Source of the DNA: a virus | Lineage: Duplodnaviria; Heunggongvirae; Uroviricota; Caudoviricetes | Direction: 5' to 3' (one strand) | Virus record (IMG/VR): IMGVR_UViG_3300035661_000015 | Span: 1-64,000 of that record | Length of the DNA stretch: 64,000 bases | Shown: positions 26,374 to 26,438 of the stretch, one piece after another | Numbering within the stretch: the stretch's first letter is position 1 | Layout: each line of letters opens with the position of its first letter | Program-made: the position numbers and the translations under genes | Notes under the pieces: model-generated | What the model saw: the letters and a program-made list of their open reading frames with translations, nothing else | Told to the model about the DNA's origin: nothing | The model's database searches: none

Positions 26374-26438
26374 GGGACGGTAGGTTTAAATGGCAAAACC
26401 CCGGACGCGGTATGTGAGTTCGATTCTCACCCGTCCCC
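26374..26438 (+). ncRNA. tRNA-like element E lacking an anticodon arm (acceptor 7 bp, D-arm, perfect T-arm; 65 nt)
   Basis: GGGACGG/CCGTCCC acceptor; GGTT..AACC D-arm with GG; GTGAG-TTCGATT-CTCAC; only 13 nt where the anticodon and variable arms should be. Confidence 0.45.

Follow-up and report, generated by a model that had tools for sequence, protein, structure and literature searches.

What a bacteriophage gains from an RNA that is folded like a tRNA and has nothing with which to read a codon is the question raised by a 65-nt element, here called X5, at positions 26374–26438 (+) of the 64,000-nt stretch of viral DNA that was analyzed (the window). The source is a large phage, with ribonucleotide reductase containing inteins, thymidylate synthase and RecA all encoded in the window, and a gene for a Ro60-like protein begins 283 nt downstream of X5 on the same strand. 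Ro60 and the Y RNAs constitute a conserved, poorly understood RNA-surveillance system. A preliminary description of X5 had been reminded of the tRNA-mimic domains of the bacterial YrlA RNAs and had proposed, as alternatives, a decoy or substrate for anticodon nucleases or tRNA-modifying enzymes.

X5 reads GGGACGG UA GGUUUAAAUGGCAAAACC CCGGACGCGGUAU GUGAGUUCGAUUCUCAC CCGUCCC C. Its acceptor stem (GGGACGG/CCGTCCC) contains seven Watson-Crick pairs out of seven, is followed directly by U8-A9 and ends in the discriminator base C26438, as is required of the acceptor and discriminator of a tRNA (RF00005). The D-arm, GGUU(U)-AAAUGGCA-(A)AACC, carries A14, G18G19 and A21 in register, and the T-arm, GUGAG-UUCGAUU-CUCAC, presents the canonical UUCGAUU loop on five intact T-stem pairs; X5 therefore possesses both the D-arm with G18G19 and the UUCRANY T-loop closed by G53-C61 by which a tRNA is recognized. 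Between these two arms lie only 13 nt, CCGGACGCGGUAU, in which RNAfold pairs CCG with CGG to give 3 bp capped by a GACG tetraloop, leaving UAU unpaired after them. The variable region amounts to 3 nt, and there is neither the 5-bp anticodon stem nor the 7-nt loop with U33 of RF00005 tRNAs. The acceptor, D-arm, T-arm and 13-nt gap are exactly as the preliminary description had drawn them.

The cloverleaf is the minimum-free-energy structure of X5 and accounts for 89% of the ensemble (RNAfold), with no competing structure that would restore a real anticodon stem. Its energy z-score is −2.09, with 6 of 200 shuffled sequences folding equally well, and the fold is retained when the entire 1.1-kb region around it is folded. 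The Rfam tRNA model scores X5 at 34.4 bits, above its gathering threshold of 29 (E = 4.6e-5 in a 1.5-kb search), and places 6 nt against 13 anticodon-arm positions, i.e., it aligns the arm as a deletion. A clan-level Rfam search kept tRNA, not tmRNA, as the best match. X5 was missing from a whole-window Rfam run with fast filters, and ARAGORN made no tRNA call at this position. Because it has no 7-nt anticodon loop, X5 is a tRNA-shaped RNA that is unable to decode, in agreement with the earlier judgment that a decoding function was unlikely.

X5 occurs once in the window, and homologues elsewhere were found neither by similarity search of a phage collection nor by pattern scan of viral contigs. 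The DNA similarity search, with 25500–28500 as the query, returned zero matches, and the scan for the X5 D-arm plus T-loop returned five, all of them chance matches within coding DNA. Two other contigs that encode the identical 562-aa Ro60-like protein carry surroundings of X5 that are 100% identical, and hence yield no covariation signal for it.

X5 is one module of a 1.1-kb noncoding array (25637–26720) upstream of the Ro60-like gene, in a 1.26-kb gap (25464 to 26721) that is free of called genes, with phosphoesterase genes on one side and the 562-aa open reading frame on the other. The order is promoter, SL1, X1, SL2, X2, SL3, SL4, X3, SL5, X4, SL6, X5, SL7, X6, SL8 and gene, where SL denotes a stem-loop and R1 the covariance model of the ACAGCA stem-loop family that is described below.

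25602–25630 (+): promoter-like site, TTGACA-17 nt-TATAAT, 12 of 12 sigma-70 consensus matches
25643–25690 (+): SL1, ACAGCA-type stem-loop, stem GAACGCU/AGCGUUU followed by CAGCA; R1 match at 25644–25689, 24.3 bits
25705–25806 (+): X1, degenerate tRNA-like element from the fold, acceptor GGCGUGG/CAACGCC with 6 of 7 paired, long central hairpin
25811–25845 (+): SL2, short stem-loop, AGAUACUU/AAGUGUCU, where CAGUA replaces CAGCA; R1 match at 25807–25851, 22.9 bits
25851–25922 (+): X2, cloverleaf-shaped tRNA-like element; the cloverleaf is the minimum-free-energy structure, z = −2.84
25925–25983 (+): SL3, ACAGCA-type, one A-A mismatch in the stem; R1 match at 25923–25987, 27.8 bits, outside the seed alignment
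25996–26051 (+): SL4, ACAGCA-type, AAACGCC/GGCGUUU; R1 match, 22.2 bits
26058–26151 or 26154 (+): X3, mini-tmRNA-like element from scanner and fold; the tmRNA model matches both ends, 23.6 bits
26154–26215 (+): SL5, stem-loop, CAGACACUU/AAGUGUCUG, with CAGCG; R1 match, 33.8 bits
26221–26301 or 26302 (+): X4, type II tRNA-like element; ARAGORN tRNA-Tyr(ata), Rfam tRNA 47 bits
26304–26365 (+): SL6, ACAGCA-type, CCGAACGCUU/AAGCGUUUGG; R1 match, 30.5 bits; ends 8 nt before X5
26374–26438 (+): X5, acceptor, D-arm and T-arm, with a 3-bp/tetraloop stub for the anticodon arm
26441–26503 (+): SL7, ACAGCA-type, AGAACAUU/AAUGUUCU; R1 match, 38.3 bits, the best in the window
26504–26661 (+): X6, structured segment from the fold and a stem scan; no model match
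26662–26697 (+): SL8, weak stem-loop, AACGCU/AGCGUU, with CAGCU; read from sequence and fold, missed by R1
26721–28409 (+): gene for the 562-aa Ro60-like protein, Pfam DUF2828 + DUF7788, predicted fold

The predicted transcription start, near 25637, is 6 nt ahead of SL1, and no terminator-like site was detected from 25300 to 26900; with its 12/12 promoter and with no gene called inside, the promoter-driven array is one unit. Intrinsic terminators were considered as an identity for the stem-loops and ruled out, as none was detected. When the whole array is folded, the tRNA-shaped modules emerge as separate units, as do most stem-loops; SL7 is not recovered. SL3 directly adjoins SL4 with no tRNA-like element in between, SL7 begins 3 nt past the acceptor end of X5 after C73-C-U, X6 contains a possible further CAGCA stem-loop at 26576–26654, and SL8 ends 24 nt ahead of the start codon of the Ro60-like gene.

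That X5 has four tRNA-shaped companions behind the same promoter had escaped the preliminary description; among X1–X5, at most one looks able to decode. X1, which gave no Rfam match, has a T-arm-like part, GUGG-UUCGAGUC-CCGC, that was read by eye; in X2, the “anticodon” arm consists of 7 bp capped by a 4-nt loop, and the T-loop reads UGCGAGU. X3, which resembles the tRNA-like domain of tmRNA, has G3:U70 in its acceptor, A73 and a T-arm, and is without a D-stem, anticodon arm or coding part. X4 has a 7-nt anticodon loop, in which the anticodon AUA is joined to a first pair of C1-G72, an unusual combination. The idea that X5 is an attP site or a tRNA-fragment remnant was discarded, since X5 retains its two halves as well as the D-arm, and the elements stand five in tandem.

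These observations also bear on whether X5 might simply be a functionless, decaying tRNA pseudogene that lost its anticodon arm by deletion. No homologue shows conservation of X5, and phage tRNA clusters often contain pseudo-tRNAs, such as the annotated tRNA-Pseudo in KVP40. Decay, however, fits poorly with the retention of all seven acceptor pairs, all five T-stem pairs, U8, A14, G18G19 and UUCGAUU next to the loss of the anticodon arm alone, with the tidy 3-bp/tetraloop hairpin made by the 13-nt remnant, or with the regular alternation of five such elements with stem-loops behind one promoter, and we regard a pseudogene as highly improbable.

The predicted fold of the protein encoded next to the array links it to Ro60. 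An AlphaFold model of the 562-aa protein (pLDDT 82) was compared with the PDB using Foldseek, and the top five matches were all Ro60/Rsr over the full length (E = 3e-6 to 7e-5), the Ro60 matches being Xenopus (1yvp and 2i91), Deinococcus Rsr (2nvo) and Thermus phage phiLo (9l5y). The predicted architecture joins a helical ring of TROVE-like form to a vWA domain; the latter carries the metal-binding motif DxSxS...T...D, and the corresponding residues D338/S340/S342/T407/D440 are invariant across the family. Pfam assigns DUF2828 and DUF7788 with no TROVE match, and a sequence profile of the protein searched against PDB sequences did not find Ro60, which was reached by fold comparison alone. Judging from its best structural matches, the protein would be a remote Ro60 relative that is detectable by fold only. 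The same phage encodes an RtcB RNA ligase at 7411–8586 (+) (Pfam E = 1.8e-62). In Salmonella, an rsr-yrlBA-rtcBA pairing is known, which the phage combination of RtcB and a Ro60-like gene parallels. The Ro60-like gene is flanked by two metallophosphoesterases and an HD_4 hydrolase.

The stem-loops of the array share a design that recurs well beyond this phage. An 8–10-bp stem has ACAGCA immediately after its 5′ strand; a variable A/U-rich loop follows, often containing a small hairpin, and then the 3′ strand, a G and a run of U. The covariance model R1 was built from 41 examples. In the window it finds seven matches, all on the plus strand and all within 25644–26508, four of which lie outside the seed. 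X5 is not itself a member of the family: R1 does not match it, its neighbors SL6 and SL7 scoring 30.5 and 38.3 bits. A total of 171 loci around DUF2828 homologues were gathered from viral, genome and metagenome collections (loci are designated by L numbers here); in viral contigs, the search returned nothing with a single protein query and succeeded with an alignment. R1 identified 96 + 61 = 157 matches in these loci at E ≤ 0.1, a rough value owing to a shortened calibration, and 157 of 157 lie on the strand of the gene. Within 108 aligned matches, the helix is 98.7% paired, with 296 cells in which both sides have changed, and the covariation score is 0.945 vs. 0.28 for shuffles and 0.10–0.18 for partner-slid controls. 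Covariation within the seed is circular, the seeds having been chosen by requiring a stem, and independent support is provided by the non-seed matches, the 157:0 strand bias and the slid controls. The ACAGCA motif is invariant among the R1 matches, and the G after the stem is present in 98 of 107. The ACAGCA stem-loop is a real, gene-linked RNA; promoter or operator repeats were ruled out, as the arms covary between copies and every match is strand-specific.

Hosts of the DUF2828 loci include Planctomycetota, Bacteroidota, Myxococcota, Firmicutes, Actinobacteria and cyanobacteria. Among cultured phages, Listeria phage LMTA-94 and Aeromonas phage 4_4572 carry the stem-loop upstream of the DUF2828 gene, and in mycobacteriophage Faith1 stem-loops are found downstream of gp55, a DUF2828 + DUF7788 protein annotated as “Ro-like RNA binding protein,” where three of them occupy the unannotated gap after this gene (L183 4379–4643). 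The cultured-phage copies sit in stretches without annotated genes, and one Listeria copy overlaps a hypothetical ORF. The family would explain unannotated gaps beside “RNA-binding protein” or “Ro-like” genes, which are found in about 685 phage records. It had no match in Rfam, in a permissive search of the array and in gathering-level searches of 30 loci, and a limited literature search found no paper describing the ACAGCA stem-loop or an RNA partner of DUF2828, Ro-like or TROVE-like proteins. The stem-loops are apparently an undescribed and widespread family of RNA partners for DUF2828 proteins, and the ACAGCA stem-loop, as a module separate from X5, is likely what the Ro60-like protein binds. 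This locus pairs a remote Ro60 relative with a different and sharply defined RNA partner motif. Because the same stem-loop is present in cultured LMTA-94, 4_4572 and Faith1, roles in binding, processing and tRNA mimicry can be tested in the laboratory.

What X5 contributes to such an array may be sought in the junctions between modules. In X3, X4 and X5, the acceptor end continues as N73 plus CU (ACU, ACU and CCU), and the next stem begins directly thereafter, so that the linker is fixed at 3 nt, while the next tRNA-shaped element begins 5–9 nt after a stem-loop. The real tRNAs of the phage, at 44.4–44.9 kb, have no encoded CCA and therefore must be cut after N73 and then CCA-tailed; their ends read A-CUUU, U-CUUU, A-CUAG and A-UCUU, three of the four beginning N73-CU. 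Between the tRNA-Glu and tRNA-Gln of this cluster, a T-arm-like sequence, GGTGGTTCGATTCCCTCAC, at about 44660–44690 (+) may be another unannotated tRNA-like element.

The same juxtaposition recurs across the loci. CAGC(A/G) lies 12–18 nt past the acceptor end in 21 of 195 tRNA-shaped elements vs. 2.7 expected (P ~6e-13), as counted with a crude scanner whose background includes many false positives. Ten of these 21 elements are ARAGORN-called tRNAs, most of them with ordinary anticodons (Trp, Gly, Met, Glu, Asp, Ile and Gln) and two, X4 and the one in L004, with odd anticodons. Stem-loops in other loci often adjoin ordinary tRNAs at the same 3–8 nt spacing, and in Aeromonas phage 4_4572 a stem-loop directly follows tRNA-Met. 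Further aberrant tRNA-shaped elements lie right upstream of stem-loops in L004/L097, L102, L115 and L061, and aberrant anticodon arms showed no significant enrichment among the stem-loop-adjacent elements (Fisher P = 0.49). By a strict scan, about three-quarters of the stem-loops in other loci have no tRNA-shaped neighbor, so that the family can do without a tRNA handle.

RNase P and RNase Z recognize the stack of acceptor and T-arm and the elbow formed by the D- and T-loops, not the anticodon arm. Since these enzymes ignore that arm, selection would keep the parts that X5 retains and let the anticodon arm shrink; and since decoding tRNAs must be released from their precursor, the junction of a tRNA-shaped element with a stem-loop is most simply viewed as a processing site. 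Our favored reading, to which we give roughly even chances on the basis of anatomy, is that X5 serves RNase P and RNase Z as a processing handle and thereby fixes where the Y-like RNAs on either side of it begin and end. According to this model, the single strong promoter at 25602–25630 would transcribe the entire array and probably also the Ro60-like gene. Host RNase P would cut at the 5′ end of every tRNA-shaped module and RNase Z after the discriminator base, and these cuts would free the intervening ACAGCA stem-loop RNAs, each with a short overhang at its 5′ end and 5–10 nt of U-rich tail at its 3′ end, to serve as Y-RNA-like partners of the Ro60-like protein. The freed 65-nt X5 would be a by-product open to CCA addition, and might additionally work as a tRNA mimic. 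A stable helix only 2 nt past the RNase Z site might hinder cleavage, which weighs against a handle, as does the direct adjacency of SL3 and SL4.

There are precedents for handles of this kind. In the MALAT1 mascRNA, the tRNA-like/pre-miRNA units of MHV68 and mitochondrial tRNA punctuation, cuts by RNase P and/or RNase Z define the ends of a neighboring RNA. X5 likewise is a non-decoding tRNA-shaped fold that abuts structured RNAs, SL6 8 nt before it and SL7 3 nt after it, and as in those cases a hairpin stands within a few nucleotides of the discriminator. However, the known cases are eukaryotic, organellar or from an animal virus, and their anticodon arm is altered yet present, whereas X5 lies in a bacteriophage operon, its arm is cut to 3 bp plus 4 nt and its cleavage is a proposal.

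The main rival to the handle has X5 built into a two-part Y-like RNA as its tRNA-mimic domain, joined to or acting with SL7. The stem-loop would bind the Ro60-like protein, and the acceptor/T/D elbow of X5 would recruit a partner that binds tRNA, for instance RtcB, a synthetase, a nuclease or the CCA-adding enzyme; recruitment of tRNA-binding partners by a mimic domain has already been proposed for YrlA. In other loci, the two parts are fused. In some, a long stem-loop encloses within its loop a T-arm and a D-arm with a closed acceptor-like hairpin between them, which is the layout of YrlA (L028, L043, L090, L109, L115 and, in Faith1, L183 4440–4569, the middle of the three stem-loops, with a 7-bp hairpin). 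In others, a hairpin with (C/U)ACAGCA replaces the anticodon loop of tRNA-like RNAs of 107–128 nt. These RNAs are neighbors of DUF2828 genes and come from genomes of Myxococcota and Bacteroidota and, as L181, from the cultured Aeromonas phage 4_4572:

L058 4763–5047, L060 4660–4944, L072 4734–4976, L074 6008–7414 and L181 2527–2642: tRNA-like RNAs with an ACAGCA insert at the anticodon-arm position

The fused tRNA-like domains, like X5, are all without an anticodon loop. Since the ACAGCA module is fused to tRNA-like parts elsewhere, tRNA mimicry seems to be part of the biology of the particle, beyond processing, and a tRNA-like domain that is built into the stem-loop RNA in other lineages favors a functional mimic over a pure processing role. 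The fixed 3-nt linker from X3, X4 and X5 to their stem-loops and the RtcB encoded by the phage point in the same direction. Against this, the same position in other phages is taken by ARAGORN-called tRNAs, which need to be cut off to function; the trailers of the X elements resemble those of the phage's real, CCA-less tRNAs; and many loci, including the closest relatives of this one (L093, L094, L096 and L098), have short stem-loops only and no tRNA-like part. We consider an integral mimic domain the less probable role for X5 and hold it tentatively. It and the processing handle are not mutually exclusive.

Among known systems, Ro60 with YrlA and YrlB comes nearest, and the likeness to YrlA that the preliminary description had noted holds for the surroundings of X5 and fails for X5 itself. 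In Mycobacterium smegmatis, a single precursor encoded ahead of rsr gives rise to both YrlA and YrlB, of which YrlA undergoes RNase P cleavage and CCA-tailing in vivo (Chen et al. 2014, PMC4201824), a direct precedent for the processing proposed here. As in that locus, the phage has small RNAs just upstream, and on the same strand, of a gene for a protein whose predicted fold is a ring of the Ro60 type, several RNAs would be released from one precursor, RtcB is present in the same genome, and a tRNA-like part has a T-arm and D-arm and no anticodon loop. In contrast, the phage protein belongs to DUF2828/DUF7788 rather than TROVE and resembles Ro60 by fold only, and the conserved RNA motif is ACAGCA following the 5′ strand of the stem rather than GNCGAAN0-1G, the motif of the Ro60-binding stem of YrlA (PMC4201824). 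X5 has no such stem, as its ends form an open acceptor stem, and its parts follow ordinary tRNA strand order (D-arm, stub and T-arm) instead of the permuted YrlA order of T-arm, closed acceptor-like hairpin and D-arm. It is a separate module beside a stem-loop, not a permuted internal domain, and hence not a module of the YrlA type.

X5 resembles the tRNA-like domain of tmRNA in having an acceptor stem and T-arm without an anticodon arm, but that domain has G3:U70 and no D-stem, whereas X5 has G3-C70 and a D-arm of 4–5 bp. With tRNA proper (RF00005) it shares the acceptor, D-arm, T-arm and bases of tertiary contacts, and differs in the absent 5-bp anticodon stem and 7-nt loop and in its 3-nt variable region; its score exceeds the gathering threshold in the 1.5-kb search, and ARAGORN leaves it uncalled. 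X5 does not fit the definition of a tRNA, a YrlA RNA or a tmRNA domain and is a new form within the theme of Ro60, Y RNAs and tRNA mimics, and the tRNA-shaped modules of the locus have been pared down to the features that are recognized by tRNA-processing enzymes.

X5 could also act alone, on enzymes directed at tRNA, either as a chargeable, His-like minimal tRNA or as a decoy for defense nucleases. G26373, at position −1, could pair with C73 (26438) to create an 8-bp acceptor as in bacterial tRNA-His; the sibling X3 has A73 and G3:U70, the alanine identity pair that is also found in tmRNA; and RtcB and the Ro60-like protein provide an RNA-repair context. However, a −1:73 pairing is also available, as U:A, in X3, X4 and two of the real tRNAs, perhaps by chance in U-rich leaders, and the G(−1):C73 pair of X5 may itself be due to chance. 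The proposal of an anticodon-nuclease decoy falters on the structure, as the loop that these nucleases require is missing from X5. A solitary decoy or substrate is, in our estimation, very unlikely.

A broader possibility takes in the protein as well: DUF2828 would represent a second branch of Ro60 that works with ACAGCA Y-like RNAs, and X5 and its siblings would be mimics designed around acceptor and elbow, CCA-tailed and perhaps charged, that aid in the sensing, shielding or repair of tRNA together with the Ro60-like particle and RtcB. We view this as unlikely and offer it as speculation. If true, it would describe an RNA class of hundreds of phages and many bacteria, in which tRNA mimicry takes at least four forms (plain; nested and permuted; anticodon-arm insert; and tandem); X5 would be His-like and X3 Ala/tmRNA-like, and the targets would be the tRNAs that are attacked by host defense nucleases.

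Several other RNA elements were encountered in the window and in the DUF2828 loci. At 33297–33373 (+) lies an odd tRNA-like element (Rfam tRNA 37.7 bits, no ARAGORN call) with the anticodon loop UUCUAAG, whose anticodon CUA would correspond to the amber stop codon; it has only 6 nt in place of the D-arm and a 22-nt variable region. Its acceptor and T-arm are nearly identical to those of a tRNA at about 6930–7016 in L026/L028/L030/L042 that has ACAGCA stem-loops on its flanks. L089 4630–4700, a short distance downstream of a DUF2828 gene from a cyanobacterium, is a 71-nt mini-tmRNA-like element (54.7 bits; cut-off 47) with G3:U70, A73 and no coding part, and with CAGCAUUUU in its central hairpin. 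Near DUF2828 genes in viral contigs, abiF RNA and a group I intron are found (L026 592–629 and 1404–1614; L028 959–996; L035 863–900), and a Halobacillus DUF2828 neighborhood contains a skipping-rope RNA (L084 1088–1214, 63.7 bits). In the phage itself, both ribonucleotide reductase subunit genes contain inteins (46641–51304, +), one of which has a LAGLIDADG domain.
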